Notes: a model not told the origin generated them from the letters alone. 64,000 nucleotides of DNA from Candidatus Nanohalarchaeota archaeon (GCA_022729235.1 JALDAJ010000001.1:352001-416000), one strand, 5' to 3'; shown: positions 14,423 through 59,628, counted from the stretch's first letter. Made by a program: numbers and translations.

Positions 14423-15309
14423 TAGCGATAATAATACCTGCGCTTAACGAGGAAGAAGCCATAGAATCAGTTATAGAAGGATTCCCGGCGAGCTACAGAA
14501 ATCACAGTATGGAGACGTACGTGATAGACGGTGGTTCAACAGATGGAACCCAGGAACTCGCGGAGAGTGCCGGTGCAAAAGTTATCAAGCAGAGACGTGG
14601 AGGCGGAAAAGGGAACGGGGTCAGCCAGGCTCTGGAAGAGATAGACGCAGATATATACGTAATGATAGACGGGGACTCCACCTATGACCCAAAAGAGATA
14701 GACAGACTCGTCGACCCTATAATAGAGGGAGAAGCGGAACACGTCATAGGCAGGCGTTCTGACCGGGAGAAAGGTGCTATACCACGTATCAACCTTGTCG
14801 GGAACTACGTCTTCAACCTGATAACCCGCCTGATGACAGGCAAGGACATCCGTGACATGCTATCAGGTTACCGGGCGTTTACCAGGGAATCCCTGGAACA
14901 CACACATTTCACAAGACCGGGTTTCGGCATAGAAACTGAGATGACGTTTACAGCGCTCGAGAACCATGTGCCGATAAAAGAAGTTGAAATCAGCTACGGC
15001 AACAGGAAGGGTAATAGTAAGCTCCACCCGATGAGAGATGGTTGGCGGATAATCAACACGATAATCTGGAGTATAAGGGACATGAACCCGCTCAAGTTCT
15101 TCTCGACTATATCGCTTTTACTCCTGGTACTTGCGGCATATCCCTCCTACCTGACCATCCAGCAGAAACTGTCCGAGGGCATCATACAGCACCCAGGAAC
15201 CGCGATAGCTGCGGGTGTCCTGGCTATACTTGCGGTGCAACTCTTCGTCTTCGGTATGCTAGCCGACCAGATCAAAAACGTGGAGAAACGGCTCAGAAAT
15301 CGTCGATAA
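14419..15309 (+). CDS. aglJ: AglJ-like GT2 dolichol-phosphate glycosyltransferase
   Basis: IPALNEE, DGGSTDGT, DGDSTYDP, DMLSGYRAF, two C-terminal TMs. Confidence 0.8.
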   Translation: MIAIIIPALNEEEAIESVIEGFPASYRNHSMETYVIDGGSTDGTQELAESAGAKVIKQRRGGGKGNGVSQALEEIDADIYVMIDGDSTYDPKEIDRLVDPIIEGEAEHVIGRRSDREKGAIPRINLVGNYVFNLITRLMTGKDIRDMLSGYRAFTRESLEHTHFTRPGFGIETEMTFTALENHVPIKEVEISYGNRKGNSKLHPMRDGWRIINTIIWSIRDMNPLKFFSTISLLLLVLAAYPSYLTIQQKLSEGIIQHPGTAIAAGVLAILAVQLFVFGMLADQIKNVEKRLRNRR

Positions 15310-16795: not shown

Positions 16796-16848
16796 ATGCC
16801 TTAATTATCTCCAATGCTTTTGTATCAGTTTGTACCTAACTAGGCGAC

Positions 16849-17766
16849 GTGAACTGGAAGAAAATAGCCAAGAACATTACAGCGATAGCGTTACTGGTAG
16901 CGCTTTTTGTCCTCGTTGACCCTCAGGAATTAGCAGGCAGTCTGTCAGGAGCCGACCCTGTCCTCTACTTGACGGGAGTAACCCTTTTTTTGACCACATA
17001 TATCGCTGCCGCTCTGAGGTGGCAGAGGCTGTCGAGATCGATAGGGTATGATCTATCTATTGGGGACGCATTCAAGATCATCGCGGTCTCCTACAGCTTC
17101 AACAAACTGTTCCCTGGCAATGCGGGAGATGTGGGTCGTTCGAAGATATTCGAACAGTTCCACGATGTGGAGAACCATGGAAATGTACTGGGGATAGTGG
17201 CGCTGGAGCGCTACCTTGGAATTGTTTCGCTTCTGGGGATAATAGGTGTCGCATTCCTTTTCATCGATTTTCCTGTCGAAGCTCTTGGGTGGATCCTGTC
17301 TCTGTTTGCTGGTATTTTAGTAGCCTTCAGCTTTCTGCTGCTCATGGATGAAGGATTCATAGAAAAAATCAAGGCACTGGTACCGATTGGATCCGGTTTC
17401 GTCAGTGATCTCTTGAAAGGGTACAGAAGTTCAAGTCGTCGAGATGTAACGGTAAACCTCATCTACTCGCTGTACATACGTTTAACCGAGGCACTGGTGT
17501 TCTACATCCTTATACTCGCCCTCACTCTTGAAACCGGGTTCTGGGAAGGCGCCTTTGTAACATCAATAATGAGTCTTGTATCCGGACTTCCTATATCACC
17601 TGGCGGGCTCGGACCGGTGGATGCGACAGGTACCGGTCTTCTGGTGGTCGCGGGCGTCACATATTCCTCGGCGCTCTCACTGGTGATTCTCCAGAGAAGT
17701 GTCGGCCTGGTATTGATGGCGGTGATAGGGGCTTTAGTATATCTGCTGCATGAGTACTTACTCTGA
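16849..17766 (+). CDS. Lysylphosphatidylglycerol-synthase TM / UPF0104 flippase-like protein
   Basis: ALRW, PGNAGDVGR, ERYL, PISPGGLG. Confidence 0.85.
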   Translation: MNWKKIAKNITAIALLVALFVLVDPQELAGSLSGADPVLYLTGVTLFLTTYIAAALRWQRLSRSIGYDLSIGDAFKIIAVSYSFNKLFPGNAGDVGRSKIFEQFHDVENHGNVLGIVALERYLGIVSLLGIIGVAFLFIDFPVEALGWILSLFAGILVAFSFLLLMDEGFIEKIKALVPIGSGFVSDLLKGYRSSSRRDVTVNLIYSLYIRLTEALVFYILILALTLETGFWEGAFVTSIMSLVSGLPISPGGLGPVDATGTGLLVVAGVTYSSALSLVILQRSVGLVLMAVIGALVYLLHEYLL

Positions 17767-31849: not shown

Positions 31850-34558
31850 ATGGAAATCTCGATAATAGGAACCGGATACGTAGGTCTTCCGGCAGGCGCC
31901 GGACTAGCTAAACACGGACATAACGTGCGGTGTGTCGATATCGACGAGGAGAAAGTCGAGAAGATCAATAAAGGTGAATGCCCGATCTTCGAGGAAGGTT
32001 TGCCTGAACTTCTAGAAGAAGTAGTGAGCGAAGGAAAACTGGAAGCCACAACAGATACTGGAAAAGCGGTTAAGGAGTCTGACATAACGTTTCTCGCGGT
32101 CGGAACACCGATGCGCGAGGACGGAAGTATCAACCTCGACTACATCAAGCAGGCGGCGGAAGACATCGCAGAAGGGTTGAAAGAAAAAGAGGATTACCAC
32201 GTTATCGTTGTGAAAAGCACCGTTGTGCCGACAACCACTGAAGAGGAGATTATTCCTGTACTCGAAGAAGTTTCAGGGAAGAAAGCTGGCGAGGACTTCG
32301 GCGTCTGCATGAACCCCGAGTTCCTCAGAGAAGGTACAGCGTTAAACGACTTCCTGGAACCTGACAGGATAGTAATAGGCGAACTAGACGGCAAATCAGG
32401 GGAAACTCTAGAACAGATTTACGAAGATTTCGATGCACCGGTGATGCGGACATCACTGAAGGCAGCAGAGTTAATCAAGTACGCTTCGAACTCATTGCTC
32501 GCGACCAAAGTATCCTTCATCAACGAGGTCGGCAACCTATGCAAGGAACTCGGAATCGATGTCTACGAGATCGCGGACGGTGTCGGGATGGACCACCGGA
32601 TAGAGAGAAAGTTCCTGAACAGTGGTGCAGGCTTCGGCGGGAGCTGTCTCACAGGCGACCAGGAGATACTAGTCAAAGAAGATGGCCAGACGCGCCTTGT
32701 CAGAATAGAAGAGTTCTTCGAGGAGAAAAAAGGAGAAAGTCCAGAAGGAGATATCAAGGCTATCAGCTGTAACGATGAAGGCGAGTTTGAATTCAAGCCT
32801 ATCCAGAAAGCTACTTCGAGAGACTACCAAGACGAGATATACACGATAAAAACCAGTATGAATAAAGAAGTGGAAGTCACGAAAGACCATCCTATGCTTG
32901 TCGTTGAGGACGGAAATCTGGAACTAAAGAAGGCAGAAGAAGTTGAGAAAGGAGACCGCATCCCTGTCTTATCAGAGATACCAGAAGACTCTATAGAATA
33001 CTTCGATCTTCTGGAGATAATATCTAACTCAGATGAGTTCAAAAACGATGAAGTATACCTGAAACCAAGTTTCGAGATTGAAGAGATAGAAAAGGAATTA
33101 CGGGAATACCTAGAAGGATACAACCAAAAATTCAGTTACGACAAGATCCGTGATTTCAGAAGAGGCAATTACATTCCTTTAGATGCGTTCCTGAAAGTAG
33201 AGAAAGAACTAGAACTCAAGCGTTCTGACTTCCGGATATACACATCAAAAGGAGCAACTACATATATTCCTGCGGTAATCTATACAGACCAGGATTTCTG
33301 GAGATTCATAGGCTACTACCTGAGCGAAGGCCACATCAACGAGGATAATTCAGGACATGGTCCCCGAGCCAGAGAGAGGATAATGCTGAGCTTCCATCCA
33401 GAAGACGAGCAGGAGTACGTCGAGGACGTGGAAGAGTATCTCGAGCAGCTCGGTATCAAGCACAGGACGGACTCCAAGGAGACAAGCACCCAGATATGCT
33501 TCTCAAGCCGTGCCTTCTCGTACTTCCTCCGGTGGCTTGGCTGCGGAACCGGCTCATACTCTGCCCAGATACCAGATATTGCCTATCAGGAGACAGAGGA
33601 AAACCGGAAAGCACTGCTGTCAGGACTCTTCAGGGGAGACGGATACATAGAATACACCAACCACTCCAACGCAGTAGTATACGACTACGGATCGGTGAGC
33701 GAAGAACTGATTCAGGGAATGAAACATCTGCTCCACAGCCTAGGTATAGTACCAAGCTACAAGGTATCAGAGTCCTCAAAATCAACCAAACCCGCGCATT
33801 TCATCCGAGTATCATCCAAACCACAGGTAGAGAAACTCCAAGAAATGTTTCTTGAAGGAGAAAGACAAAAAATAACCCAGCGACTGGATTCCTACGACAA
33901 AGAAATCAGACCTACTGGACACAAGAAAGACACCGACTTTACAACGGTCAAGGTGAAAGAGATCAGGAAAGAGAAAAGAGACACGGAAGTATACTCCCTA
34001 GAAGTCAAGGACACCCACAACTTCGTGACCACAGACGGACTGGTAGTCCACAACTGCTTCCCAAAAGATGTCCGCGCGCTGATATCCTTCATGGAGGAAA
34101 ACAGTATCGAACCTCGTATACTTCAGTCAACGATCGACGTCAATACAGATCAGAAGACAAAGCTCGTTGAATTACTAGAAAAACGTGTTGACGCTATCGA
34201 AGGAAAAACCGTAGCAGTACTAGGATTAGCATTCAAGCCAGGAACCGACGACGTCAGGAAAAGTCCGGCGATACCGATAATCCAGGAACTCAAAGACAAA
34301 GGCGCGGAAGTCAAAGCGTACGACCCGGAAGCCATGGAAAACATGAAAGAAAAGCACCATCCTAACATCGATTACTACGATACCTACCAGGAAGCGCTGG
34401 AAAACACAGATGCCGCTTTAATCGTCACGGACTGGGAAGAGTTCGACCAGATTACCAGAGAAGACATCAAGACCATGAACAACCAGCTCATCCTCGAAGG
34501 CATGAAAACCAACCATAATCTCCCTGAAGACAAAATAGAAGGGATTACTTGGTCATGA
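31850..34558 (+). CDS. aglM: UDP-glucose 6-dehydrogenase (AglM-like) with intein
   Basis: GTGYVGL, KSTV, NPEFLREG, GFGGS|...|CFPKD, GLAFKPGTDD. Confidence 0.93.
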   Translation: MEISIIGTGYVGLPAGAGLAKHGHNVRCVDIDEEKVEKINKGECPIFEEGLPELLEEVVSEGKLEATTDTGKAVKESDITFLAVGTPMREDGSINLDYIKQAAEDIAEGLKEKEDYHVIVVKSTVVPTTTEEEIIPVLEEVSGKKAGEDFGVCMNPEFLREGTALNDFLEPDRIVIGELDGKSGETLEQIYEDFDAPVMRTSLKAAELIKYASNSLLATKVSFINEVGNLCKELGIDVYEIADGVGMDHRIERKFLNSGAGFGGSCLTGDQEILVKEDGQTRLVRIEEFFEEKKGESPEGDIKAISCNDEGEFEFKPIQKATSRDYQDEIYTIKTSMNKEVEVTKDHPMLVVEDGNLELKKAEEVEKGDRIPVLSEIPEDSIEYFDLLEIISNSDEFKNDEVYLKPSFEIEEIEKELREYLEGYNQKFSYDKIRDFRRGNYIPLDAFLKVEKELELKRSDFRIYTSKGATTYIPAVIYTDQDFWRFIGYYLSEGHINEDNSGHGPRARERIMLSFHPEDEQEYVEDVEEYLEQLGIKHRTDSKETSTQICFSSRAFSYFLRWLGCGTGSYSAQIPDIAYQETEENRKALLSGLFRGDGYIEYTNHSNAVVYDYGSVSEELIQGMKHLLHSLGIVPSYKVSESSKSTKPAHFIRVSSKPQVEKLQEMFLEGERQKITQRLDSYDKEIRPTGHKKDTDFTTVKVKEIRKEKRDTEVYSLEVKDTHNFVTTDGLVVHNCFPKDVRALISFMEENSIEPRILQSTIDVNTDQKTKLVELLEKRVDAIEGKTVAVLGLAFKPGTDDVRKSPAIPIIQELKDKGAEVKAYDPEAMENMKEKHHPNIDYYDTYQEALENTDAALIVTDWEEFDQITREDIKTMNNQLILEGMKTNHNLPEDKIEGITWS
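32645..34054 (+). mobile_element. Intein with LAGLIDADG homing endonuclease (470 aa) in UDP-glucose dehydrogenase
   Basis: Starts CLTGDQ, block B TKDHP, FIGYYLSEG, LSGLFRGDG, ends VVHN followed by Cys. Confidence 0.95.
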
Positions 34559-46121: not shown

Positions 46122-47360
46122 ATGGATAGAAATGAGGGCGGGGGCGAGGTTTCAGTAGCGGATAGCGAACTGAAATCCAGGTTCTCCAATTACATCAATA
46201 AAGACACAGTTTTCAGGAATAAGGAGGCGCTCACTACTAACTGGAAACCAGAGACTATTCTACACCGAGACCAACAGGTCAATAACCTTGCGTCGATTCT
46301 GGCGCCAGCTCTCAAAAGAGATGATCCTAGTAATGTCTTCATCTACGGTAGCGTAGGGACGGGAAAGACATGTGTAACCAAACACGTTACAGAAGAGCTG
46401 AGGGCTGTAGCCCATGAGGAAGAGGTAGACCTCAATATTGTTTATATAAACTGTAAGATGAAGAAGGTAGCTGATACAGAGTACCGTCTGTTAGCGAAGC
46501 TTACCCGTCAGCTGGGTGAGGAAGTCCCTTCTACCGGCCTCCCTACGGATGAGGTTTACAACCGTTTCTTCGAGGCGCTGGAGAGCCAGGAGGGTGTAGT
46601 CATCATAGCTCTGGATGAGATAGACGCGCTGGTGAAGAAGGTTGGTGACGAGTTCCTGTACAATCTTACTAGAATAAACGATGACCTGAACGACACAAAA
46701 GTTTCTATAATAGGTATCTCCAACGACCTCAACTTTACCGAGTATATGGATTCTCGCGTCAAATCCTCTCTTTCAGAAGAAGAGATAATATTCCCTCCTT
46801 ACAACGCCCTGGAACTCCGGGAGATCCTGGATTCAAGGGCGGGGAAAGGGTTCGCGGACGAAGTTCTTGAGGACGGGGTTATATCCAAATGTTCTGCTTT
46901 AGCCGCCCAGGAACATGGTGATGCCCGGAGGGCGCTAGACCTTATACGTGTCGCGGGCGAGCTCGCGGAACGTGAGGGAGAAGAGCGAGTTGCCCGGTCT
47001 CACGTGGACAGGGCGCAGGATAAGATAGAGAAGGACCGTGTGGTTGAAACAGTCAGGGATCAACCAAAACACTCTAAACTCGTCTTATACACTATACTTG
47101 AGATGGCTGATGAGGATGATGAGGTCGCGACCGGGGATGTCTATTCTGAATACAAGGAGCTCTGCACCCAGGTCGATGTTTCTGAACTCACCCAGAGACG
47201 TGTTTCGGGTCTTATATCTGAGCTGGATATGTTAGGGGTTATCAATGCGAGAGTTATATCAAAAGGACGGTACGGTAGAACAAGGCAGATAAGTGTTGAC
47301 CTGTCACAGGATATTAGGACACAGCTACGTGAAATGGTCGAAGACAAGTTTTACATTTAA
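46122..47360 (+). CDS. cdc6: Orc1/Cdc6 replication initiator
   Basis: GSVGTGKT, LDEID, HGDARRALD, GRYGRT. Confidence 0.97.
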   Translation: MDRNEGGGEVSVADSELKSRFSNYINKDTVFRNKEALTTNWKPETILHRDQQVNNLASILAPALKRDDPSNVFIYGSVGTGKTCVTKHVTEELRAVAHEEEVDLNIVYINCKMKKVADTEYRLLAKLTRQLGEEVPSTGLPTDEVYNRFFEALESQEGVVIIALDEIDALVKKVGDEFLYNLTRINDDLNDTKVSIIGISNDLNFTEYMDSRVKSSLSEEEIIFPPYNALELREILDSRAGKGFADEVLEDGVISKCSALAAQEHGDARRALDLIRVAGELAEREGEERVARSHVDRAQDKIEKDRVVETVRDQPKHSKLVLYTILEMADEDDEVATGDVYSEYKELCTQVDVSELTQRRVSGLISELDMLGVINARVISKGRYGRTRQISVDLSQDIRTQLREMVEDKFYI

Positions 47361-47374
47361 GTTGGGGGAGGAAG

Positions 47375-48958
47375 TTGAACGAGAACGCTGTCAAACAGCT
47401 GACGGAGAAAGGATGCATTGTTGAGAAAGACGCAGCTGAAACGCTGACGCAGGAAGATGTTGACCGTATTGAGAAGCTTGACTCTCCTCCTATGTACATA
47501 ACTGGGAAGATGATATCTCGCCTGAGGGAGGAAGCCCCGGAGAAAGAAGTGGTATCTGACTCGCAGAAGCTTGTTATGAAAGAAGGTGATGGAGATGGGG
47601 GACAGGGAAAGGAAGAAAGCACCAGTTCAGAAGATAATGGACAAGACAGCTCAACTGAGAATGCTTCCGACGAACCTTCTGTTGACGGCTCTGAACCCCG
47701 CCCGAGTGCTTCTGCCGCAGCCATGAGAGATACCGGTTCCCGATCAATTGATACCAAGGTAGAGGTTCTAGACCAGGCTGAAATCTCGAAAGAGGAGAAG
47801 GATGTCCCCGAGTTCCTTGAATACTACAACGACCGTTACGACCGGATGAAGAAGATTTTACTTCGGCGTATGGAGATGAAGTCTGCAGTCACTATCCAGA
47901 GGCTGGACCGCAGGGATGAAGGAGAGGAAGCTGCCACGATAGGTCTCGTGAAGAACAAGTATTCCACACGTTCCGGGAAGTATATAGTGGAGCTGGAGGA
48001 TAAGACAGGGACGTTCAAGGCACTGGTTGATGAACGCGAGGGTGACCGTATAGTGCCGGATGAGGTGATAGGAGTCAGGGGTAGTATGGGTGATGATATA
48101 ATATTCGCGAACTCGGTAGTGAGACCTGACTTACCGATACCGGATGGCGTCAAGACCACCTCACAGAAAGTAAGGGCGGCGTACATATCTGACTTCCACT
48201 TCGGTTCTAAGGATACGATGTATGACCGGGCGGACAAGTTCGCGGAGTGGATGAACTCCGAACAGGCGAGGGATATAGGTTATCTGGTCATCCCGGGTGA
48301 TGTGGTGGAGGGTGTGGGCACATACCCTGGTCAGGAGGAAGAACTCGATATAACTAATATCTACGACCAGTATGCAAGGTTTGAGGAGTGGGCTGAACAG
48401 CTCCCGGAAGACCTGGAAATCATAATCGGACCAGGAAACCACGAGATAGTCAGGTTAGCGGAACCTCAGCCACAGATACCTGAAAAGGCGCTGCCAAACA
48501 TGTCGGACTGGAACAACGTCCACCTGGTTCAGAACCCGCAGTACGTCCGTCTACACGGTATACGCTCGAAAGGGATACTTAACCTGCTGTACCACGGATA
48601 CTCTTTTGATGAGCAGATCGACCAGATACAGGAGCTTAGAGAGAAGGCATACGACGACCCGCACCACGTCATGATAGATCTTTTGAAGAGGAGACACCTG
48701 GCACCAACTTACGGCTCCAACCTTCTTTCTCCTGAAGGGAAGGACCGGCTGGTGATAGATAGGAAGCCAGACATATTTGCATCAGGTCACCTCCACGCCC
48801 ACTCCAACGAGAGCTATAAAGGAGTCAATGTTATCTGCGCCTCAACATTCCAGGCACAAACCGATTTCCAGAAAAGGATGGGTCACGACCCACAGCCCGG
48901 ACTGGTAACTCTGGTGGACTACAAGAAGCGGAACACGGAGGTGAAAAGGTTCGCGTGA
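47375..48958 (+). CDS. polD1: DNA polymerase D small subunit DP1
   Basis: OB fold, SDFHFGS, GDVVEG, PGNH, YHG, GHLH. Confidence 0.95.
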   Translation: MNENAVKQLTEKGCIVEKDAAETLTQEDVDRIEKLDSPPMYITGKMISRLREEAPEKEVVSDSQKLVMKEGDGDGGQGKEESTSSEDNGQDSSTENASDEPSVDGSEPRPSASAAAMRDTGSRSIDTKVEVLDQAEISKEEKDVPEFLEYYNDRYDRMKKILLRRMEMKSAVTIQRLDRRDEGEEAATIGLVKNKYSTRSGKYIVELEDKTGTFKALVDEREGDRIVPDEVIGVRGSMGDDIIFANSVVRPDLPIPDGVKTTSQKVRAAYISDFHFGSKDTMYDRADKFAEWMNSEQARDIGYLVIPGDVVEGVGTYPGQEEELDITNIYDQYARFEEWAEQLPEDLEIIIGPGNHEIVRLAEPQPQIPEKALPNMSDWNNVHLVQNPQYVRLHGIRSKGILNLLYHGYSFDEQIDQIQELREKAYDDPHHVMIDLLKRRHLAPTYGSNLLSPEGKDRLVIDRKPDIFASGHLHAHSNESYKGVNVICASTFQAQTDFQKRMGHDPQPGLVTLVDYKKRNTEVKRFA

Positions 48959-51900
48959 AGACTGAAGAATACTTCGAGAGTTTGAGGTCGCAAACAGAGA
49001 GAGCTTACGATATCGCGGAGGAGGCGCGCTCCCAGTCGAAAGACCCTGAGGGTGGTGTAGATATCCCGGTCGCGGAGGATTTACCGGAGAAGGCATCATC
49101 CCTGGTAATCGCCGCGAAGTTCCCGGAACTCGAGGATAGTGGTGTCGCGGAACGTATACGTGAGCTGGAGGATGAGTACGGCAAGAACGATGAGCGTGTA
49201 TCTTTCGAAATCGCCCGCGAGATAGCAGAGGGAGAGTTTCATGAGTTTGACGACCTTGAGCGGGCGTGCGAGGCAGGTATCCGTGTTGGCGTCTCGTACA
49301 TGACAGGAGGTATCACTACAGCCCCGCTTGAAGGTATCGGGGATGTCCGGATACGCGAAAACAGTGATGGCACGGATTACCTCGCTATCTACTACTCCGG
49401 CCCTATCAGGTCCGCGGGAGGAACAGCTTCAGCGATGTCCGTCCTCCTGTCGGACTACGTACGCCTCAACGTAGGACTTGAAGAGTTCAAACCGTCGGAG
49501 AAAGTGGTGGAGCGCTATGCCACAGAGGTCGATGACTACTACAACCGTGTCACCTCGAAACAGTACTACCCAGACCGTGAAGAGACCAAGATGATAGCAG
49601 ATAACGTCCCTGTAGAGGTAACGGGCTCACCAACTGAACAGCTCGAGGTGTCGAACTACAAAGACCTGGAACGCGTCAAGACGAACCGGATCAGAGGTGG
49701 TATGTGCCTGGTCTACCTTGACGGTCTACCGTTGAAGGCGCCGAAGATCAAGAAACGTATCGAGAAATGGGGTGAAGCGTTCGGTCTGGAGCACTGGAAG
49801 TGGGTGGAGGAGTATCTCGAACTACAGGAAGAACTACACTCCTCAGGGGATGACGATGAGGAAGAAGAGGAAGAAGGCTTCAGTTACACACCTTCCGACA
49901 AGTTCCTGGATTCGATGACAGCAGGAAGACCTGTATTCGGTCATCCTGGGAAGAAAGGAGGTTTCCGGCTACGGTACGGTCATTCCCGGAATAATGGACT
50001 TGCCGCTACCTCGGTTCACCCTGCGTCGATGGAGATCACGGAACGTTTTATGGCGACAGGTACCCAGCTGAAGACAGAATACCCGATGAAGGGTACGGTC
50101 ACGACACCTTGTGACTCTATACATCCGCCGGTTGCCAGACTGGAGAACGGCGATGTAATCCGGGTGGAGACGCGTGAAAAGGCGCGTGAGATAGAGAATA
50201 AAATTGACGAAATACTTTTTCTCGGGGATATGCTGGTGGCTTACGGTGAGTTCGTGGAGAATGGTAAGCGCCTTCTACCATCTCCATACGTGAGTGAGTG
50301 GTGGGAGAAGGATCTGGAAAAGGCGCTCAAGGAGGGGGAAGTAAAGCTCGGGCGGGACTTCTCCGGGCGCGACCCGACACCGAAGGAGGCGTTCAAGATA
50401 TCGGAGAAACTGGATATACCGCTCCATCCCAGGTGGACTTATCACTGGCGTGAGACATCGGTCGAGCGGTTCGAAGCACTTTACGAGGCGGTCAACTCTG
50501 GAGAACTGGAAGGCGAGAAAGTCAAGAGGTGCCTGGAAGACATACTGCTTGAGCACAGGGTTGAAGACGGAAAAATAGAGCTGGAGAAGCAGGACTTGCT
50601 TGTCCTCCAGAGGCTATTGAAGGATAATGATGAGCCGGAAATCGATGACGCGAGGGAGATACCGGGTTACATAGAAAAAGAGACCAGGGTTGAACTAAGG
50701 GAGCAGGCTCCGCACTACGTCGGTGCAAGGATGGGGCGACCTGAGAAGGCAGAAAAGAGGACTCTAGAAGGGAGACCACAGCTTCTTTTCCCCTGTGGAA
50801 AACAGGAGGGTGGGAGGATGAGAAATCTTTCGGAGTCTTACCGCAAAGGTGAAGTGGAGCAGGAGATAATCCACAACAAGTGTCCTGAATGCTCCAGTTT
50901 CACCTATTTCTCCTACTGCGTGGACTGCGATGTAGCTGCAGATCCGGTCTGGTTCTGCTCTGACTGCGGAAAAGAGTTCGACGAGGAGATGGATAGATGT
51001 GGTTCTTGCGGCAACGAGGACTTCAACCGGCACCAAAGGACAGATATAGAAGTAGAGGAAGTAATCGATGATGCGCTTGACAACCTGGGTTCCCGGCTAC
51101 CAGAGCTCCTGAAGTCGCCGAGAGGTATGAGCGGTAAGCACCGCCACGTCGAACCTGTGGAGAAAGGACTTCTCAGGCAGAAATACGGTCTCTACGTCAA
51201 CAAGGATGGTACAGTGCGGTACGATGCCACAGATATACCTATGACTCATTTCAGACCGCGGGAGATATCTACGTCCGTGGAGAAACTGCGTGAAATCGGT
51301 TACACTGAGGACGTAAACAGCGAACCACTGGAGTCGGAGGACCAGGTTCTGGCGTTGAAGCCGCAGGATATAGTGATACCGGATACCGACAAGTCGCTTC
51401 CTGCCTCAGACTACTTTGTTAACGTCGCAAAGTTCATCGACGACCTACTGGAAGAGTTCTACGGTCTCAAACCTTACTATAACGCTGAAAAAAAGGAGGA
51501 TCTTATAGGCGAGCTCGTAATAGGTCTCGCACCGCACACCTCAGGAGGTACTGTAGGTCGCATAATCGGGTTCACGGATGCGAAAGGTATCTATGCACAT
51601 CCCTACTGGCATGCAGGAAAAAGACGTAACTGTCTACCTGGTGACGCAGAAGTGAAGATGGCTGATGGATCAACACAGAGGCTTAGAGAGCTATACGAGA
51701 GTGCAGGAGAGGAGGAAGAGGTCGACTCAACAGGGACTGTGGAGAAGGAGATGGATGAAGAGGTCCTGACGGTTGATGGGAAGAGTATCAATGCTTCAAA
51801 AGCATCTAAGGTTATCAGGACACCCGCCCAGGACTTCAAGATAGAGTTTGAGACTGAAGGGGGCAGAAAGTTCGAGGTATTCCCAGATCACCGGGTAAAG

Positions 51901-54900
51901 ACGGGTGAGGGTGTGAAGAAAGCCCGTGAGGTTGAGGAAGGAGATAAAGTTTTCACTCCTCTAGAGGTTGATGTCGAAACAGAGGACAAAAAATACCTGG
52001 ATCTAGCAGATATGCTCTTGAACTCTAAGAGGGTGATGGTAAGAGGTGTAGAGGAGAAGGCGGATGCAGCTATCAAAGACCTCGGCGGTCTAAAGGAGGC
52101 ATCTACAGAACTAGGAGTTTCAAAGAAATCTCTGGGTAATTACAAGTATCGAGATAGTATCCCTCTGGACCTGTACCGGGATTTAATGCAGGAGAGTTCT
52201 CAGGATGATAAATTACTGGAAGATACTTCTTTAGCTGCTAAAAGAGACACTGTAGAAATACCTGCTGCGATAGAAGCTGATTCTGACTTCATGAAGCTCC
52301 TGGGATACTACCTGGCAGAAGGCTACACCCGGAAGTCCGAGAAACAGGGAGAAGAATTCTATCAAGTATGCTTCGCGTTTGGAGAACAGGAGCTTGAGGA
52401 TAACATCCGAGAGGTGATAAACAGTGTCTTCGGTATCGAACCGTCCAGACAGGACCATGTCTTGGTTATCAGCTCCAGATTAGTCTATGAGCTCTTCAAG
52501 TCATTAGAAGTCGGAGCAGGTGCGAAAGAAAAGAGGGTCCCGGAATTTGTGAAATCTTTACCAAAAGAAAAAGTCGCTGATATGCTTTCAGCCTACTTTG
52601 CTGGAGACGGGTCAGTTGAAAAGGGAAGGCTCCATGTCCAGGCAACTAGTTCCTCTAGGAAGCTCCTTGATGATATCGACTTCCTGCTGAAGAGGTTCGG
52701 GATTTACACCAGGTACTATCAGAATGATAGAGAGGCAGGGGGAATACTTGTTGATAAGTACGGTGAAGAACACTATGAGGGGAGAACATTTACAACTAAC
52801 AAGCTTCATATCCGGTCTTCTCATGCGGTTACGTTCGGTAAAGAAATAGGCTTTGATCTGGGAAGAAAACAGAAAGCTCTAGAAGCTGATTATAAGAGGG
52901 AACGAAATCCGAGGATTGAGACGGACGGAGAACTTGTGAAAGAAGAGATAAGGTCAAAAGAAACCAGGGAATCTGAAGAACGCTTTATGTATGACATAGA
53001 AGTTGAAGAAACACATAATTTCGTTACAAGAGACAACCTGGTTACTAATAACTGCGACGGTGACGAAGACGCGATATTACTGCTTATGGACGGCCTCCTT
53101 AACTTTTCACGGCAGTTCCTCCCTGATATGACTGGCGCGCGCAGTATAACGAAGGATACACGTATATTTGTCAAGAGAAATGAAGAATTACTGGCTCCTA
53201 CAGCTGAGGAATTGATCGATGAAGTTCTTGAAGATGAAGGGTATGAAACCCGGTCTGACGGATTTGAGGTCTGCAGGAGTTTTGATGACGATATTAAGGC
53301 AGTTTCATTTAGTGAAGATGGAGATGTCGGGTTCACTGATGTATCTGCCCTTATTAGACATGAGAACGATAAGCAGGTTTTCAGGGTGAAGACCTCAAGA
53401 GGCGAGATATCTGTAACCGGAGATCACAGCGTTTTCGTCACAGAAGGAAGGGAGATAGAGGCTAAACCTGTGCGGGAGATAGAAGAAGGTGAATGTATAG
53501 TGGTTCCCTCAAATCCGGATTTAGAAGCTGAAGGACTGCCTGACAAAGTAGATCTATTTGAAGTGATTCCTGACGAAGAATGCTATGTAAAGGTTCCAGA
53601 GGAGGAGCTAGAGGAAATAGGACCTGAGATAAAGCAAGAGGTCACAGAGGATGTAAAGCAGTCCTACAGCGAACATAATATTTACAGGTACAGGACAGGA
53701 AGGAGAGATGCACCTCTCAAGTTCTATAAGGAGGTAGGGGTAGTACCATCCTGCAAGGTGAGACTTCGAGCTGATACTGACCCTGTTAACAGGTTCTTTG
53801 AAGACTGCGATGAACTATACCGCCTTCTAGGTTACCTTCTCTCAGAAGGAGCTCTTGACAGAGGAGATATCTACAACACGGATATAGAATTAATTGAGGA
53901 TGCCAGAGACTGTATCGAGAAGCTTACGGGAGTAAGACCGGATATCAAAGAAGATGTTAGAGAAGAGAGAAAGGTTTGCTATAGTGTCAGGGTTCCGGCT
54001 GCTTTCATGAAGGCTCTGGAAGAGCTTGGTCTTGCCCGGAATAAATTTGATGAGAAAAGAGTTCCCTCGTTTGTATTTGGAGCAGATAAGAGTAAGGTTA
54101 GGAGTTTCATCGAGGCATATAGAAGCGGTGACGGCTCCATATATGAGGAGAAAGGATTTTCCAAGCTCTATACTAAGAGCGGAGAAATGGCTTCACAACT
54201 CTCACTTCTCTTGAGAAAACTTGGGTACAAGTCATCCGCACGCCAGGCAGGAGAGACATGGGAGGTGCTTTATTCGGAGTGGAGGGATAAGGATCCTTAC
54301 TGGCCCCTATGGGATATACTAGATGAAGCTCGTGAAACGCTAAGAGAAGATGGTTTTGACTATGAGGATGTCAAGAGAGAGTTCTCTAACGATAGGACTA
54401 ATGAACGTATGAAAACCGCGTCCAAGGAGAGGGTGGAAGATCTCTATGAAAAAGGAGTTAGTTCTTTAGAGAAGGCGGCTGAAGGCGATATCTCTGTAGA
54501 AAGAGTGGTGGAAATTGAAGAAGCGGATTATGGTGATGACTACGTATATGACCTAGAGGTACCGGAAAAACAGAACTTCCTGTGCGGTCCTCATCCTGTC
54601 TTCGCTCATAACACTATGGATGCGCCATTGATTCTTTCAACAGTTCTCAACCCTGACGAGGTCGATGACGAGGCGTGGGCTATCGAGACGGTCAGTGAGT
54701 ATCCGAGAAGCTTCTACGAAGAGACGCAGGAGTACAAGTATCCGTGGGAGCTTGACACCGATATCGAGATAGGTGAAGATATCGTCCACAGCGATGAGCC
54801 TTTCCGCCACGGCTACACACACGAATCGCAAAATATAGAGAACGGGCCGATGCAGAGCGAGTACGTGACGCTCGACGAGATGAGTGAGAAGACCAGGCAA

Positions 54901-55308
54901 CAGCTCGGGCTTGGTGAGAAGCTGAAGGCGGTGGAGGAGAACAAGGTCGCTGATTTACTGCTACAGAAGCACTTCATCCCTGATATCAAAGGTAATCTCC
55001 GTTCTTTCTCCAGCCAGGAGATGAGGTGTGGTGACTGCAACACCAAGTTCCGTAGAGTGCCGATGACTGCCCAAACAATTGCTCCAACAGGCAAAACCAC
55101 AGCGGAGTGCCCCGAGTGCGGGGGTAAAGTGTTGCTGACGATTTCTGAAGGCACTATCAAGAAGTATATGGAGCCATCGAGAGATATAGTCGAGGAGTTT
55201 GAGGTATCTCCCTATGTCCGACAGCAGATTATAATCCTCAAAGATACACTCCAGAGCCTTTTCGGGAAGGACGACAGGCAGACTGGTATCAAACAGTTCA
55301 CTACATGA
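48955..55308 (+). CDS. polC: DNA polymerase D large subunit DP2 with two inteins (about 1153 aa spliced)
   Basis: GPIRSAGGT, GGFRLRYG, RMGRPEK, KRRN|CDGDED, MDAPL. Confidence 0.97.
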   Translation: MKTEEYFESLRSQTERAYDIAEEARSQSKDPEGGVDIPVAEDLPEKASSLVIAAKFPELEDSGVAERIRELEDEYGKNDERVSFEIAREIAEGEFHEFDDLERACEAGIRVGVSYMTGGITTAPLEGIGDVRIRENSDGTDYLAIYYSGPIRSAGGTASAMSVLLSDYVRLNVGLEEFKPSEKVVERYATEVDDYYNRVTSKQYYPDREETKMIADNVPVEVTGSPTEQLEVSNYKDLERVKTNRIRGGMCLVYLDGLPLKAPKIKKRIEKWGEAFGLEHWKWVEEYLELQEELHSSGDDDEEEEEEGFSYTPSDKFLDSMTAGRPVFGHPGKKGGFRLRYGHSRNNGLAATSVHPASMEITERFMATGTQLKTEYPMKGTVTTPCDSIHPPVARLENGDVIRVETREKAREIENKIDEILFLGDMLVAYGEFVENGKRLLPSPYVSEWWEKDLEKALKEGEVKLGRDFSGRDPTPKEAFKISEKLDIPLHPRWTYHWRETSVERFEALYEAVNSGELEGEKVKRCLEDILLEHRVEDGKIELEKQDLLVLQRLLKDNDEPEIDDAREIPGYIEKETRVELREQAPHYVGARMGRPEKAEKRTLEGRPQLLFPCGKQEGGRMRNLSESYRKGEVEQEIIHNKCPECSSFTYFSYCVDCDVAADPVWFCSDCGKEFDEEMDRCGSCGNEDFNRHQRTDIEVEEVIDDALDNLGSRLPELLKSPRGMSGKHRHVEPVEKGLLRQKYGLYVNKDGTVRYDATDIPMTHFRPREISTSVEKLREIGYTEDVNSEPLESEDQVLALKPQDIVIPDTDKSLPASDYFVNVAKFIDDLLEEFYGLKPYYNAEKKEDLIGELVIGLAPHTSGGTVGRIIGFTDAKGIYAHPYWHAGKRRNCLPGDAEVKMADGSTQRLRELYESAGEEEEVDSTGTVEKEMDEEVLTVDGKSINASKASKVIRTPAQDFKIEFETEGGRKFEVFPDHRVKTGEGVKKAREVEEGDKVFTPLEVDVETEDKKYLDLADMLLNSKRVMVRGVEEKADAAIKDLGGLKEASTELGVSKKSLGNYKYRDSIPLDLYRDLMQESSQDDKLLEDTSLAAKRDTVEIPAAIEADSDFMKLLGYYLAEGYTRKSEKQGEEFYQVCFAFGEQELEDNIREVINSVFGIEPSRQDHVLVISSRLVYELFKSLEVGAGAKEKRVPEFVKSLPKEKVADMLSAYFAGDGSVEKGRLHVQATSSSRKLLDDIDFLLKRFGIYTRYYQNDREAGGILVDKYGEEHYEGRTFTTNKLHIRSSHAVTFGKEIGFDLGRKQKALEADYKRERNPRIETDGELVKEEIRSKETRESEERFMYDIEVEETHNFVTRDNLVTNNCDGDEDAILLLMDGLLNFSRQFLPDMTGARSITKDTRIFVKRNEELLAPTAEELIDEVLEDEGYETRSDGFEVCRSFDDDIKAVSFSEDGDVGFTDVSALIRHENDKQVFRVKTSRGEISVTGDHSVFVTEGREIEAKPVREIEEGECIVVPSNPDLEAEGLPDKVDLFEVIPDEECYVKVPEEELEEIGPEIKQEVTEDVKQSYSEHNIYRYRTGRRDAPLKFYKEVGVVPSCKVRLRADTDPVNRFFEDCDELYRLLGYLLSEGALDRGDIYNTDIELIEDARDCIEKLTGVRPDIKEDVREERKVCYSVRVPAAFMKALEELGLARNKFDEKRVPSFVFGADKSKVRSFIEAYRSGDGSIYEEKGFSKLYTKSGEMASQLSLLLRKLGYKSSARQAGETWEVLYSEWRDKDPYWPLWDILDEARETLREDGFDYEDVKREFSNDRTNERMKTASKERVEDLYEKGVSSLEKAAEGDISVERVVEIEEADYGDDYVYDLEVPEKQNFLCGPHPVFAHNTMDAPLILSTVLNPDEVDDEAWAIETVSEYPRSFYEETQEYKYPWELDTDIEIGEDIVHSDEPFRHGYTHESQNIENGPMQSEYVTLDEMSEKTRQQLGLGEKLKAVEENKVADLLLQKHFIPDIKGNLRSFSSQEMRCGDCNTKFRRVPMTAQTIAPTGKTTAECPECGGKVLLTISEGTIKKYMEPSRDIVEEFEVSPYVRQQIIILKDTLQSLFGKDDRQTGIKQFTT
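51631..53052 (+). mobile_element. Intein 1 in DP2 (474 aa, LAGLIDADG)
   Basis: KRRN|CLPGD..., PDH, LLGYYLAEG, AYFAGDG, ends VTNN|C. Confidence 0.95.
53143..54612 (+). mobile_element. Intein 2 in DP2 (490 aa, LAGLIDADG, Ser1)
   Basis: GAR|SITKD..., TGDHS, LLGYLLSEG, AYRSGDG, ends FAHN|T. Confidence 0.93.
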
Positions 55309-55919: not shown

Positions 55920-56372
55920 ATGAGCATGGAAATAGTAGAGGAAATCAGGAGGCAGAGAAGCACTTTCGCCGTCGAGAATCCTGGCTCTGTTTACGCAGAG
56001 ATAAGAGACCTTCTGGAGCGCCGGATGAGCTTTGACAAGGTTACTGAGGAGAAGTATTTCCATGACGTGGAGGAAGGACGGGTAAGATCACATATCGTGA
56101 CAATAGAGTTTTTCGATAACGTGACTAGAGAGGAACTGGAGATATACCTCACAATAGATGAGACCTCGAATGAGCTTGACATACTTGTGAAGGGCAAGCT
56201 TGTAACTGAATACGATGTAGACGGCTGGAGAGATTCGGTCTGGTACTACGCCTATCGCGCCCTCTATGACAAGTTCCTTTACGGTAGTGTCCGGCACGGT
56301 TACGAACCAGCGGTCGAGGAGAAAATTGAGGAACTAATCGAACGTATACGCCAGAACGTGGAGGCGACGTAG
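55920..56372 (+). CDS. Uncharacterised protein, paralogue A of a tandem triplet
   Basis: Good ORF; shares motifs with the next two genes. Confidence 0.8.
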   Translation: MSMEIVEEIRRQRSTFAVENPGSVYAEIRDLLERRMSFDKVTEEKYFHDVEEGRVRSHIVTIEFFDNVTREELEIYLTIDETSNELDILVKGKLVTEYDVDGWRDSVWYYAYRALYDKFLYGSVRHGYEPAVEEKIEELIERIRQNVEAT

Positions 56373-56373
56373 G

Positions 56374-56997
56374 ATGGTCGTGTTCACAGAGAATGTGCCT
56401 CCGAAGGCAGACCACCTGTTCGTGCGCGAGGACCCTGCGAGACTTTACCGAGGGCTCAGAGAGCTTCTAGTTGAAGAGTTCGATGTGGACAGGATTGAAG
56501 AGGGCAGGATGGAGTTCAACGTCGAGAAGCCGAAGGACCGTGTCCGGCTACACGCTTACAAGGAGAAAAGCCCTCACACAGTACTTTACTGGAAGTTTTC
56601 GGTTAAAGCCAAGCCCCCTCGTGACGTGTACAAATACGACAGACCTGACGACATACTTAAGGCACGGTACAAGATAACACCCAAGGTCATAACCATGTAT
56701 CCCGGCGGAGAACCGCTATCGTGGATGCCCAAGATCCAGTCAGAGTGGCCGATGGAGAGAATCGGGGCAGGACACCCAGGTCTGACAGCGGAGGAGCTCA
56801 CTAATTTCCAGCGCTCCAAACTCTACGAGGTCCTCATGAATATCTGGTACAAAAAGTTTTATTCCAAGGAGATAGAACGATACAAGGAGGAGGCAGAGGA
56901 GTCCATGCTGCGTATGGTAAACCTGTTCCGCGAAAAATTCGGAGTAGAAAAGGCGGTCTGGAGATCCGGCGCCAGCCACTACGACCCGCCCTGGTGA
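56374..56997 (+). CDS. Uncharacterised protein, paralogue B
   Basis: 1 nt from A; shared motifs. Confidence 0.8.
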   Translation: MVVFTENVPPKADHLFVREDPARLYRGLRELLVEEFDVDRIEEGRMEFNVEKPKDRVRLHAYKEKSPHTVLYWKFSVKAKPPRDVYKYDRPDDILKARYKITPKVITMYPGGEPLSWMPKIQSEWPMERIGAGHPGLTAEELTNFQRSKLYEVLMNIWYKKFYSKEIERYKEEAEESMLRMVNLFREKFGVEKAVWRSGASHYDPPW

Positions 56998-57003
56998 TAG
57001 CCG

Positions 57004-57684
57004 ATGAGCGAAGACACAACCTGGTTCCAGAGAAATATACTGCCCTGGCTGCACACACCGGGGACGTACAAGACAGACCACGAGAAGAAGAATTTCAAGG
57101 AAGACGACAATATCTGGCACGAGTTCCATATCTTCGACGGGGAATGGATCGAAATCCAGAACAGGGTGGACTGGTACGAGAGCCCTAACCTACCGAGTAT
57201 ATACGAGGACCACAAGTACATAATGAAGCAGAACATGGGGATGATGAGACCGGAAGAGACGTTCTACCAGCAGAACGTGGACACCAATGCCTTCAAGTCG
57301 GATATGTATTCCCAGGAGGACCTGCCCAGCGGCAGGGGGAAAGTCAGGATAGAGACCAATATATGGACCAAGACCCCGCCCTCGGGGGAGAACGATTTCG
57401 GTATGGCGGAGTACCTGGTACGCACCAAGATACGGTACAGCATCCCAAACGGCGTGACATTCCTTCCGCGTATACTTGCGCGACCACTCAACAGGTTCTT
57501 CAAATGGGCTTTTCTCAAGTATATAGGAGAGGAAATGGTGGAGCGCGACAGTGAGTACGCCCTGGAAAAAGCGAGAGAGTACTACGACTACATCAGGAAG
57601 TACCACGGGGAGGAGCCGATACAGACCAAGTCCCGGCGCGCAGAGTTCGAACCAGCTATAGAGGACGGAGTGTTCTTCCGTTAA
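57004..57684 (+). CDS. Uncharacterised protein, paralogue C
   Basis: 6 nt from B; shared C-terminal helices. Confidence 0.8.
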   Translation: MSEDTTWFQRNILPWLHTPGTYKTDHEKKNFKEDDNIWHEFHIFDGEWIEIQNRVDWYESPNLPSIYEDHKYIMKQNMGMMRPEETFYQQNVDTNAFKSDMYSQEDLPSGRGKVRIETNIWTKTPPSGENDFGMAEYLVRTKIRYSIPNGVTFLPRILARPLNRFFKWAFLKYIGEEMVERDSEYALEKAREYYDYIRKYHGEEPIQTKSRRAEFEPAIEDGVFFR

Positions 57685-57695
57685 CGCACTTGGTG

Positions 57696-58122
57696 TTAGG
57701 GAGGACAGTGTTTCTTGAACCAGTCTGCTGTCAGGTCTGTTACTTTGTTCCAAGTTTCATCATAGTCATGACCTGTATCAGGAATCGGCTGTAGGTCTCC
57801 GTCCACGAGTTTCTCCACAGCTCTTCTTGACTCTTCCGGGGAGACCACCTCATCTTCTTCACCGTGGATAATACGGACAGGACATTCTATACCCGACAGG
57901 AGCTCATTCTGGTTTACTGAATTCAGTTCGTCTACTATTTCCGAGTCTATCCATATCAGCTTCCTCTTTTTCTTCAGATAACTGATACTGGGAACGACCC
58001 CACTCATCTTTGTCGCCCGTGAACCTGTGCGACACCACGACAAAAGCGTCGCTATCCGAATTCCAGTACGTTCCAACAAGCGTCTTCCTATGAATGTTCT
58101 CGAAACTTACTTTCTCCGGCAT
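57696..58122 (-). pseudogene. Alpha/beta hydrolase pseudogene (internal deletion and frame change)
   Basis: N-terminus MPEKVSFEN..VVVSHRFTGDK in one frame, C-terminus IIHGEEDEVV..TGHDY in another; GxSxG region absent. Confidence 0.8.
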
Positions 58123-58176
58123 AAAAATACTGAAGCCGGTAATAAGAAAAAGCTTCTCTTCCCAACGCTTTCTAGA

Positions 58177-58255
58177 GCTGCCCTACGGTCAGCAGCTGTG
58201 AGCGACCCCCTTAACGGGTAGGGTACATGATCGGCTGTGTTACAGGGCAGCAAAA
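58177..58255 (+). ncRNA. Probable H/ACA pseudouridylation guide RNA
   Basis: Stem gctgccct/agggcagc, pocket acggtca + gttac, upper stem with GUGA/AUGAUC K-turn-like motif, 3' AAA. Confidence 0.7.
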
Positions 58256-58262
58256 TCTTACT

Positions 58263-58514
58263 ATGACAGAGGTCTACATCAAGGTAAAACCGGGCGAGGA
58301 CGACAGGTTCAGGATAGAGTTCAAGGACTTTCCCACTATTTACCTGGAAAACGAGGCTGAAGCCGGTAGGGCGAATACAGAACTCGTGAACCGCCTGGAA
58401 CAGGTCCTCGGACAGAAACCGGGTATCGTGTCCGGGCACCAGTCCCGCAGGAAAAAGATACGTGTAGACCTCGAAAAAGAGGAGATAATGGAGAGGCTAA
58501 AAGAACATGGGTAA
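58263..58514 (+). CDS. DUF167/UPF0235 (YggU) protein
   Basis: VKPG, GRANTEL, IVSGHQSRRK; ATG at 58263. Confidence 0.88.
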   Translation: MTEVYIKVKPGEDDRFRIEFKDFPTIYLENEAEAGRANTELVNRLEQVLGQKPGIVSGHQSRRKKIRVDLEKEEIMERLKEHG

Positions 58515-59628
58515 GGTCGCCCAGAAATCGGCGAAGTACGTAATAGACGCGGAACTTGACGCTTCCGGGATAGTTGAAAAGCCGGACGTTGTAGGAGCGA
58601 TTTTCGGGCAGACAGAGGGTCTTCTTGGCGACGAACTCGACCTGAGAGAACTGCAGGAATGTGGGAGGATAGGGAGAATACAGGTTGACGTGAGTAGAGA
58701 AGGTGGCTCATCCTCCGCCACCATCAGGATTCCTTCATCTCTTGATTCCACGGATACTGCGCTTATAGCAGCTTCTCTTGAAACTATCGAACGTGTAGGT
58801 CCTACGAATGCAGATATCAAAGTCGGAGAAATCCGGGACGAACGTGTTTCCAAGCGCGACTACATCAAGAAACGGGCGAAACAGCTGCTGGAAGATCTGA
58901 ACTCGCAGTCACCCGACCACGGCAAGATAAACGAGGAGGTGAAGAAAGAGGTCAGGACGACCGAGATAACTGAATATGAGGGGTTCGAGGCAGGACCTGG
59001 AGCTGAACTCTCCGAGGAAATCGTCCTAGTAGAGGGTCGCGCTGATTTACTTAACCTGCTCAGGCATGGTGTCAAGAACGCCGTTGCGATAGGCGGTACG
59101 TCGGTCCCTGACAAACTCTCCGAACTGGTCGATGACAGGGAAGTGACCGCGTTCCTCGACGGTGACAGGGGCGGCGACCTGATACTGGAAGAGCTGAAGG
59201 AAGACGGACTGGTCTATCACATCGCGAGGGCGCCGGAGAACAAGGAGGTCGAAGAGCTTGGGAAGGAGGAAGTCCACTCACGGCTGAGAGACAGGGAGCC
59301 CGTAAAATTTGTCGAGGCAGAAGAGGTCGAAAGAGACGACGAAAAGATAACTGCGTTGCAAGAAAAACTTGAGGAACTGGTCGGAACCCGCGCAGCTCAC
59401 GCACTTGACAGTGAACTAGAGATTGTTTCGAAGATACCGGCGGGCAAACTACATGAACTAGAGAAGAATTGCCACGCAATCCTCATAGATGGAGAAATCG
59501 ACCGTGACAAGATTGATCGGGCGGAGAAACTTGATGCAGACTACATAGCAGGGATGGAGAAATCCGACATGGCGACCTCTTCAGAAGTAGAGCTGATAAC
59601 TAGAAGCGAGATGGCGGAAGTTAATTGA
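58507..59628 (+). CDS. dnaG: Archaeal DnaG-like TOPRIM protein
   Basis: DVVGAIFGQTEGLLG, VEGRAD, DGDRGG. Confidence 0.96.
   Translation: MGKVAQKSAKYVIDAELDASGIVEKPDVVGAIFGQTEGLLGDELDLRELQECGRIGRIQVDVSREGGSSSATIRIPSSLDSTDTALIAASLETIERVGPTNADIKVGEIRDERVSKRDYIKKRAKQLLEDLNSQSPDHGKINEEVKKEVRTTEITEYEGFEAGPGAELSEEIVLVEGRADLLNLLRHGVKNAVAIGGTSVPDKLSELVDDREVTAFLDGDRGGDLILEELKEDGLVYHIARAPENKEVEELGKEEVHSRLRDREPVKFVEAEEVERDDEKITALQEKLEELVGTRAAHALDSELEIVSKIPAGKLHELEKNCHAILIDGEIDRDKIDRAEKLDADYIAGMEKSDMATSSEVELITRSEMAEVN

Follow-up and report, generated by a model that had tools for sequence, protein, structure and literature searches.

A putative box H/ACA guide RNA for helix 69 of 23S rRNA encoded upstream of dnaG in a nanohaloarchaeon

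A 64,000 nt stretch of DNA from Candidatus Nanohalarchaeota archaeon (GCA_022729235.1, JALDAJ010000001.1:352001-416000; hereafter called the window) very probably encodes, at positions 58177-58255 of the plus strand, an archaeal box H/ACA guide RNA that consists of a single hairpin of ~80 nt. The predicted target of this nanohaloarchaeal RNA is the uridine equivalent to E. coli U1915 in helix 69 of 23S rRNA. We infer that the guide is transcribed and acquires a defined 3′ end and, by analogy with known guides, it should be bound by proteins and should direct the formation of a pseudouridine at the U1915 equivalent.

Hairpin architecture and genomic setting

The hairpin lies within a 140 nt gap. 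The original prediction had described an 8-bp basal stem, two pocket strands, an upper stem and a GUGA...AUGAUC cap at this site, and all of these elements are present in the sequence where they had been placed. The hairpin and its immediate surroundings comprise the following features.

58140..58152, plus strand: A/T-rich, putatively TATA-like stretch (TAATAAGAAAAAG) located 25-37 nt before the hairpin
58177..58184, plus strand: 5′ strand of the lower stem P1 (GCTGCCCT), a perfect 8-bp complement of 58244-58251; seven of the eight pairs show double-sided changes (n = 11)
58185..58191, plus strand: 5′ strand of the pocket, ACGGUCA, antisense to 23S UGACCGU (E. coli 1917-1923)
58192..58198, plus strand: 5′ strand of the upper stem P2, GCAGCUG, partner of 58232-58238; six of the seven pairs show double-sided changes
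58199..58201, plus strand: non-bulged strand of the K-loop, with the U of a U.U pair followed by the G and A of a tandem sheared G.A; resembles box D (GUGA) when G58198 is included
58202..58225, plus strand: apical insert of variable length containing a small hairpin (58205-58211 with 58216-58224), from folding and RNAalifold
58226..58231, plus strand: bulged strand of the K-loop (CAU, G229, A230, U231); resembles box C (AUGAUC) when C58232 is included
58232..58238, plus strand: 3′ strand of P2, CGGCUGU, from the sequence, pair counts and RNAalifold
58239..58243, plus strand: 3′ strand of the pocket, GUUAC, antisense to 23S GUAAC (E. coli 1910-1914)
58244..58251, plus strand: 3′ strand of P1 (AGGGCAGC), complement of 58177-58184, from pair counts
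58253..58255, plus strand: ANA box AAA, within an A run at 58252-58255, at offset 14 from the P2-closing nucleotide U58238
58263..58514, plus strand: DUF167 (YggU family) gene (Pfam PF02594, E = 5.7e-08), with MTE/MSE start residues shared by relatives
58507..59628, plus strand: archaeal dnaG (Toprim), assigned by Pfam Toprim families; the closest named proteins are nanohaloarchaeal DnaG

Two of the seven base pairs of P2 (58192-58198 with 58232-58238) read as G.U, and opening of the closing G.U would enlarge the pocket from strands of 7 and 5 nt to strands of 8 and 6 nt. Above P2, the sequence alone places a U58199.U58231 pair followed by G58200.A58230 and A58201.G58229, the latter two forming layers 9 and 10 above the pocket-closing pair. 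Because three nucleotides of the non-bulged strand (58202-58204) are unpaired, the apical part reads as a K-loop carrying an inserted hairpin rather than as a textbook K-turn. The box is AAA, whereas ACA is the commonest form.

These dimensions can be compared with rules given in three publications. Archaeal guides are described as having a lower stem of 7-9 bp, a box located 14-15 nt (up to 16 nt) from the pocket-closing pair and a ‘GA stem’ of 10 layers, the latter a feature of every solved RNP and of productive guides (PMC4652768). Pocket strands measure 5-11 nt and the box has the general form ANA (PMC2377435); its two A's are recognized by Cbf5, and the distal G:A pair follows 9-10 pairs above the bottom of the upper stem (PMC7075261). 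The lower stem of the window hairpin, which directly precedes the 3′ box, has 8 bp and its pocket strands have 7 and 5 nt, all within the published ranges. Likewise, the ANA box lies at offset 14, and a K-loop with tandem sheared G.A pairs is placed at 10 layers, insofar as this can be read from the nucleotide sequence. The distances within the hairpin fit the archaeal H/ACA architecture that had been proposed for it.

Folding with ViennaRNA recovered the same stems with a minimum free energy of -33.9 kcal/mol. The folding z-score is modest (-2.17), and 7 of 200 shuffled sequences fold at least as well. When the window was searched with an H/ACA descriptor that ignores the target, the hairpin was the sole locus found, and at least one match was also obtained in 7 of 20 shuffled windows. 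The shape alone is therefore no evidence for a guide, the architecture by itself being within chance; the argument for one is built on the comparison of relatives and on the target match. A pocket-specific descriptor gave 23 raw matches in nine sources (window plus loci, 1.33 Mb, both strands) versus 1-2 per shuffle; one of the nine sources, L036, is probably a false match.

Searches with Rfam models gave no match at the gathering score in the whole window, be it to rRNA, tRNA or any other family. Between positions 57900 and 58600, three unrelated weak matches were seen at E ≤ 10, none of which overlaps the hairpin and none of which is to HgcG (RF00064). Because no covariance model matches it, the hairpin is not filed under an existing Rfam family. 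Genes for cbf5, nop10, gar1 and L7Ae were not found by Pfam among the window ORFs of at least 50 aa (scans of 16, 57 and 5, within 64 kb of a contig of 1,027,595 bases), nor in 46 of the 135 ORFs, chosen by length, of seven related loci. A protein-coding origin of the conserved segment was also considered and rejected: the ORFs over the hairpin (58027-58221 on the plus strand and 58110-58439 on the minus strand) match no Pfam family, and the length of the segment differs among relatives by non-multiples of 3.

The TAATAAGAAAAAG element is a possible archaeal promoter, as judged from its composition and location. Among the 28 family members described below, many have TTTAA-type elements ahead of their lower stem (flanks judged by eye, uncounted), and these elements suggest that the guide may have its own promoter. 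Downstream, the DUF167 gene overlaps the start of dnaG at 58507. The closest non-self match of the DnaG protein is 73% identical, and its best named relatives are primases labelled ‘Nanohaloarchaea’, which supports the earlier view that the host genome is of DPANN type.

Other features of the window concern its neighbouring genes. Two overlapping ORFs in different frames lie upstream of the hairpin on the minus strand (57696-58079, with weak alpha/beta-hydrolase matches, and 57904-58122, with no Pfam family). Because they are jointly shorter than a normal hydrolase, this pair (57696-58122) probably represents the decayed remains of one gene; no gene occupies the corresponding place in L001, L002, L003 and L005. 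Farther upstream, at 55920-57684, are three successive genes of 150, 207 and 226 aa without a Pfam family. In L001, a sequence recognizably related to the end of the third gene precedes the hairpin, and suggests that a block of uncharacterized genes next to the guide is conserved.

Genes for cdc6/orc1 and for the small and large subunits of PolD are arranged in a row at 46122-55305, and dnaG follows within 3 kb. This cluster of replication genes suggests that an origin may be nearby. In the PolD large subunit (DP2, 2117 aa, 48955-55305), intein-splicing and LAGLIDADG domains each occur in two stretches, and a UDP-glucose dehydrogenase of 902 aa (31850-34555) carries an intein with a LAGLIDADG domain, so that at least two intein-bearing genes occur in one 64-kb window.

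Conservation and covariation in relatives

Related loci were collected by a scan based on an alignment of 60 DnaG proteins, which yielded at least 80 loci, with six loci of nanohaloarchaeal title among the matches listed. The window and the 80 loci listed constitute the 81 sources used below. The hairpin is present upstream of DUF167-dnaG in L001, L002, L003, L004 and L075, corresponding to five of the six nanohaloarchaeal loci among the matches listed. In the sixth, L058, the spacer upstream of DUF167-dnaG is short and lacks the hairpin, and a model search with filters off found no copy in its 21 kb.

In a MAFFT alignment of the six nanohaloarchaeal sequences, the pocket letters GTCAGC (58188-58193) and GTTA are invariant, as are the K-loop letters G58200, A58201, A58227, U58228 and G58229. 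The pocket letters are constant among the nanohaloarchaeal copies with the exception of the divergent L075, whose pocket reads CGUCA. The stems vary, and in L003 three pairs of the lower stem carry changes in both partners in this alignment. The apical insert differs in length between copies and is missing in L075, leaving a plain K-loop of 6 nt. Only one of the two G.A pairs is retained in L003 and L025; K-turns may tolerate a variant second G.A pair.

RNAalifold, when applied to the six-sequence MAFFT alignment, which was not fitted to any model, predicted the same two stems and the apical hairpin, with 13 of the 21 predicted pairs kept through double changes. A covariance model built from these six sequences (R1) gave 11 matches in the 81 sources listed, six of which were its own training sequences. 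A second model built from the 11 (R2) gave 28 matches in the same 81 sources, 11 of them again training sequences, with a single match within the window. All 28 matches share the strand of dnaG and lie upstream of it, their ends 129-1083 nt before its start; this uniform placement validates even those with weak E-values.

Besides the window, the family comprises L001-L005, L011, L014, L017, L021, L023, L025, L032, L034, L038, L039, L041, L044, L047, L048, L055, L065, L066, L068, L069, L072, L075 and L080. The members added by the model searches are mostly labelled as Woesearchaeota and Nanoarchaeia-type DPANN, together with one Bathyarchaeota, one Colwellia and several named only ‘archaeon’. 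The Colwellia entry (L005, titled Colwellia polaris MAG) encodes an archaeal DnaG that is 47% identical to that of the window, a DUF167 gene and the hairpin (9634-9724); the contig is thus archaeal, although it was binned with the genome of a bacterium.

Base pairing is maintained across the family. In the 11-sequence alignment, 92.7% of 164 cells are paired and 13 of 15 pairs are changed on both sides. When partners were slid by 1-3 columns only 31-50% were paired, and none of 500 shuffles attained the observed values. The 28-sequence alignment has 89.0% of 418 cells paired. The 11- and 28-sequence alignments were fitted to the model and hence lean towards it, and the RNAalifold analysis of the MAFFT alignment serves as the unfitted check. 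The pocket-closing G58192.U58238 never covaries (G.U in eight of the 11 sequences, unpaired in three) and may therefore belong to the pocket. Covariation upstream of DUF167-dnaG in relatives, which had been proposed as a check, is thus seen, with compensatory changes in both stems and a hairpin at five of the six nanohaloarchaeal loci among the matches listed.

The unpaired parts of the RNA are constrained as well. GTTA of the pocket is present in all 28 family members. Of the 11 best members, 10 have the A-N-A at offset 14 and the remaining one has it at 15, and in 27 of the 28 an A-N-A lies at an offset of 14-16. This regularity defines the box of the window as 58253-58255, and sets the distance from the top of the pocket, which had been given as 13-14 nt, at 14. 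The triplets observed are AAA, AGA, AUA and ACA, so that both A's are kept while the middle base varies; this pattern agrees with the recognition of two A's by Cbf5 that is described in PMC7075261. Pocket, K-loop and box A's, the conserved unpaired parts, are those that a guide would be predicted to preserve.

Model searches with filters off were also carried out on 11 loci without matches, which include L058 and loci labelled Aenigmatarchaeota, Methanobacteriaceae, Archaeoglobaceae, Hadarchaeota, Micrarchaeota, Nanoarchaeia and, in three cases, only ‘uncultured archaeon’. Nothing was found upstream of dnaG in these loci, and the best scores of 15-16 bits fell inside dnaG or RNase P RNA.

A different pocket is seen in the Woesearchaeota-type members (L034 8460-8541, L048 3881-3962 and ~15 more), in which the 5′ strand reads GAGAGUA and the 3′ strand AGUUAG.... 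Their K-turn letters are GGAG...AUGAG, and their box, ACA or AUA, lies at offset 16. From its sequence, this pocket is predicted to pair with ACUCUC, with four bases remaining unpaired in the manner of H. volcanii sR-h45.

The helix 69 target and alternative explanations

The predicted pairing was evaluated with the rRNA of L058 (Candidatus Nanoanaerosalina halalkaliphila), the only locus with a 23S gene among the loci listed and a distant relative, its DnaG being 46% identical to that of the window. Rfam places the 23S gene of L058 at 13271-16222. It belongs to an rRNA operon (16S, tRNA, 23S) that is followed by RNase P RNA and another tRNA, all within 11428-16910 and directly downstream of dnaG. 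Helix 69 of L058 reads GGCGGTAACTATGACCGTC, and nucleotides 1986-1999 of its 23S rRNA read GTAACTATGACCGT.

When the pocket was compared with the 16S and 23S rRNAs of L058, one best site emerged at 23S U1991, with 7 + 5 Watson-Crick pairs (12 of 12) and no G.U. The runner-up site in these rRNAs has seven pairs, four of which are G.U, and with G.U allowed, 12 pairs were attained by 8 of 2000 shuffled pockets. A gapless alignment to E. coli rrlH equates U1991 with E. coli U1915, the position that had been expected to remain unpaired. L058 and E. coli differ at 1909, 1918 and 1921, and the guide agrees with L058 at 1918 and 1921. In particular, C1921, a G in E. coli, is matched by G58187 of the guide, so that a lineage-specific position fits as well. 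From the guide alone it had been predicted that helix 69 continues as UGACCGU, and exactly this sequence, GUAAC-UA-UGACCGU, is found in the 23S rRNA of L058, that is, in a relative from the same phylum. Helix 69 of the window genome itself would be expected to have the same sequence.

In the mechanism that we propose, which is modelled on archaeal RNPs that have been solved or reconstituted, the RNA would fold into a lower stem, pocket, upper stem and K-loop. L7Ae would bind the tandem G.A K-loop, and Cbf5-Nop10-Gar1 would associate with the lower stem and with the 3′ ANA box. The pocket would then open helix 69 of the pre-23S rRNA by pairing GUUAC with GUAAC (1910-1914) and ACGGUCA with UGACCGU (1917-1923). 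U1915 and A1916 would be left unpaired at the base of the upper stem, where Cbf5 could isomerize U1915 to pseudouridine. Because U1917 and G1918 are predicted to pair with A58191 and C58190 of the guide, a single guided pseudouridine is expected, located at the U1915 equivalent, with no guided modification of U1917.

As an alternative, the hairpin could serve mainly as a cis-acting leader in the DUF167-dnaG transcript, such as an L7Ae-binding K-turn or a structure controlling translation or stability, with its likeness to H/ACA RNAs being secondary. In the window, no T run comes after the box and DUF167 begins 7 nt past the A run, and for these reasons the hairpin may belong to an mRNA leader. 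So short a distance leaves no room for a separate promoter, and the placement of all 28 matches on the dnaG strand, at 129-1083 nt and in several phylum-level lineages, likewise favours a leader. Read-through into the DUF167-dnaG transcript, or processing from it, is possible. However, a leader function would leave unexplained both an invariant pocket that is a 12-bp bipartite complement of helix 69 with a 2 nt gap, and the combination of an A-N-A at a fixed 14 nt offset with a 10-layer G.A spacing. Furthermore, a T-rich run is located 3′ of the box and before the next gene in L001, L002, L004 and L005, which is compatible with termination. We consider a primarily cis-acting leader very unlikely; such a leader would also be compatible with a guide role, since the guide could be cut from it. 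Instead of being a free-standing gene, the helix 69 guide could indeed be a processed 5′ leader of the (DUF167-)dnaG transcript, an arrangement older than the divergence between Nanohaloarchaeota, Woesearchaeota-type DPANN lineages and one or more contigs labelled Bathyarchaeota; this seems to us unlikely. If true, the output of a guide for the most conserved rRNA pseudouridine would be coupled to DnaG expression. Archaeal DnaG is also a subunit of the RNA exosome, and it could then even help to trim the 3′ end of the guide.

It is also conceivable that an RNA of H/ACA type binds helix 69 without directing its modification, either as a chaperone of rRNA folding or as an inactive relic, or that a stand-alone enzyme modifies U1915. 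The AAA box and the non-canonical apical region deviate from the commonest form, and PMC7075261 reports that the equivalent guide of H. volcanii is dispensable for viability. Nevertheless, the hairpin conforms to all of the spacing rules that separate productive from non-productive guides, its pocket is under strong purifying selection, and ANA variants are counted as functional boxes in the literature (PMC2377435, PMC7075261), which makes a role without modification very unlikely. An accidental hairpin in a divergent intergenic region would be in keeping with the modest folding z-score and with the matches of the generic descriptor in 7 of 20 shuffled windows. This explanation is scarcely credible given compensatory changes in 13 of 15 pairs, 28 matches at the same position and a unique rRNA match, and the comparative data refute it as far as computation allows. 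A productive guide for the U1915 equivalent is the reading that we favour.

Significance and relation to known guides

Guides for the U1915 site are already known in other archaea, and the window hairpin is a further RNA of a familiar type; our understanding of H/ACA guides is unchanged by its discovery. In the literature searched, outside of which most subscription journals lie, no description was found of an H/ACA RNA in Nanohaloarchaeota or of a linkage between a helix 69 guide and dnaG. The covariance model finds the RNA in 28 of the 81 archaeal sources listed, while Rfam finds nothing in the window, and annotations of DPANN genomes probably miss this RNA. Its constant place upstream of dnaG provides a simple landmark for finding the guide and raises a modest question of co-transcription.

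The presence of a guide in a DPANN genome is no surprise because H/ACA RNAs have been reported for Nanoarchaeum equitans (PMC4652768) and homologues of Cbf5 and Nop10 have been noted in that organism (PMC2584109).

According to PMC2584109 and PMC2377435, the helix 69 uridine equivalent to U1915 is guided by motif 3 of Pab40/Pf7 in Pyrococcus and by Afu-4 in A. fulgidus. The P. abyssi site is 23S U2016, and in vitro only the U1915 equivalent, and not the U1917 equivalent, is reported there to be formed (PMC2584109, PMC2377435). The window guide is predicted to share the target of these RNAs and would likewise pair with U1917, leaving only UA unpaired. Pab40, which is the Rfam family HgcG (RF00064; PMC4652768), belongs with Pf7 to a type of RNA with three hairpins. 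In contrast, the window RNA has a single hairpin, and neither R2 nor the generic descriptor located a second motif nearby. The window hairpin also differs from Pab40 in giving no match to RF00064 at E ≤ 10 and in having AAA as its box.

A second archaeal precedent is H. volcanii HP2, that is, stem-loop 2 of sR-h45, which guides the equivalents of both U1915 and U1917 (PMC2584109, PMC7075261). Like the putative window guide, this stem-loop is of H/ACA type. It has a K-turn and an ACA form of the box where the window has AAA, and it serves pseudouridylation of the helix 69 loop in the 23S rRNA of a halophile, for which genetic and in vitro proof is given in PMC7075261. According to the same source, sR-h45 is a double stem-loop of ~200 nt, whereas the window RNA is a single hairpin. 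Stem-loop 2 of sR-h45 leaves UAUG unpaired and yields pseudouridines 1940 and 1942, whereas the window guide would leave UA and address one site. The dual-site layout of sR-h45 (double stem-loop, UNUN unpaired) is accordingly absent from the window hairpin. Common descent of the window guide with Pab40, Afu-4 and sR-h45 may be supposed from the shared target alone.

Beyond the archaea, human U19 and yeast snR191 guide the same pseudouridines, at the 1915 and 1917 equivalents (PMC2584109). As described in PMC7075261, these eukaryotic snoRNAs have two hairpins, an H box and no K-turn, with Nhp2 in place of L7Ae, and in these respects they differ from the single K-loop hairpin encoded in the window.
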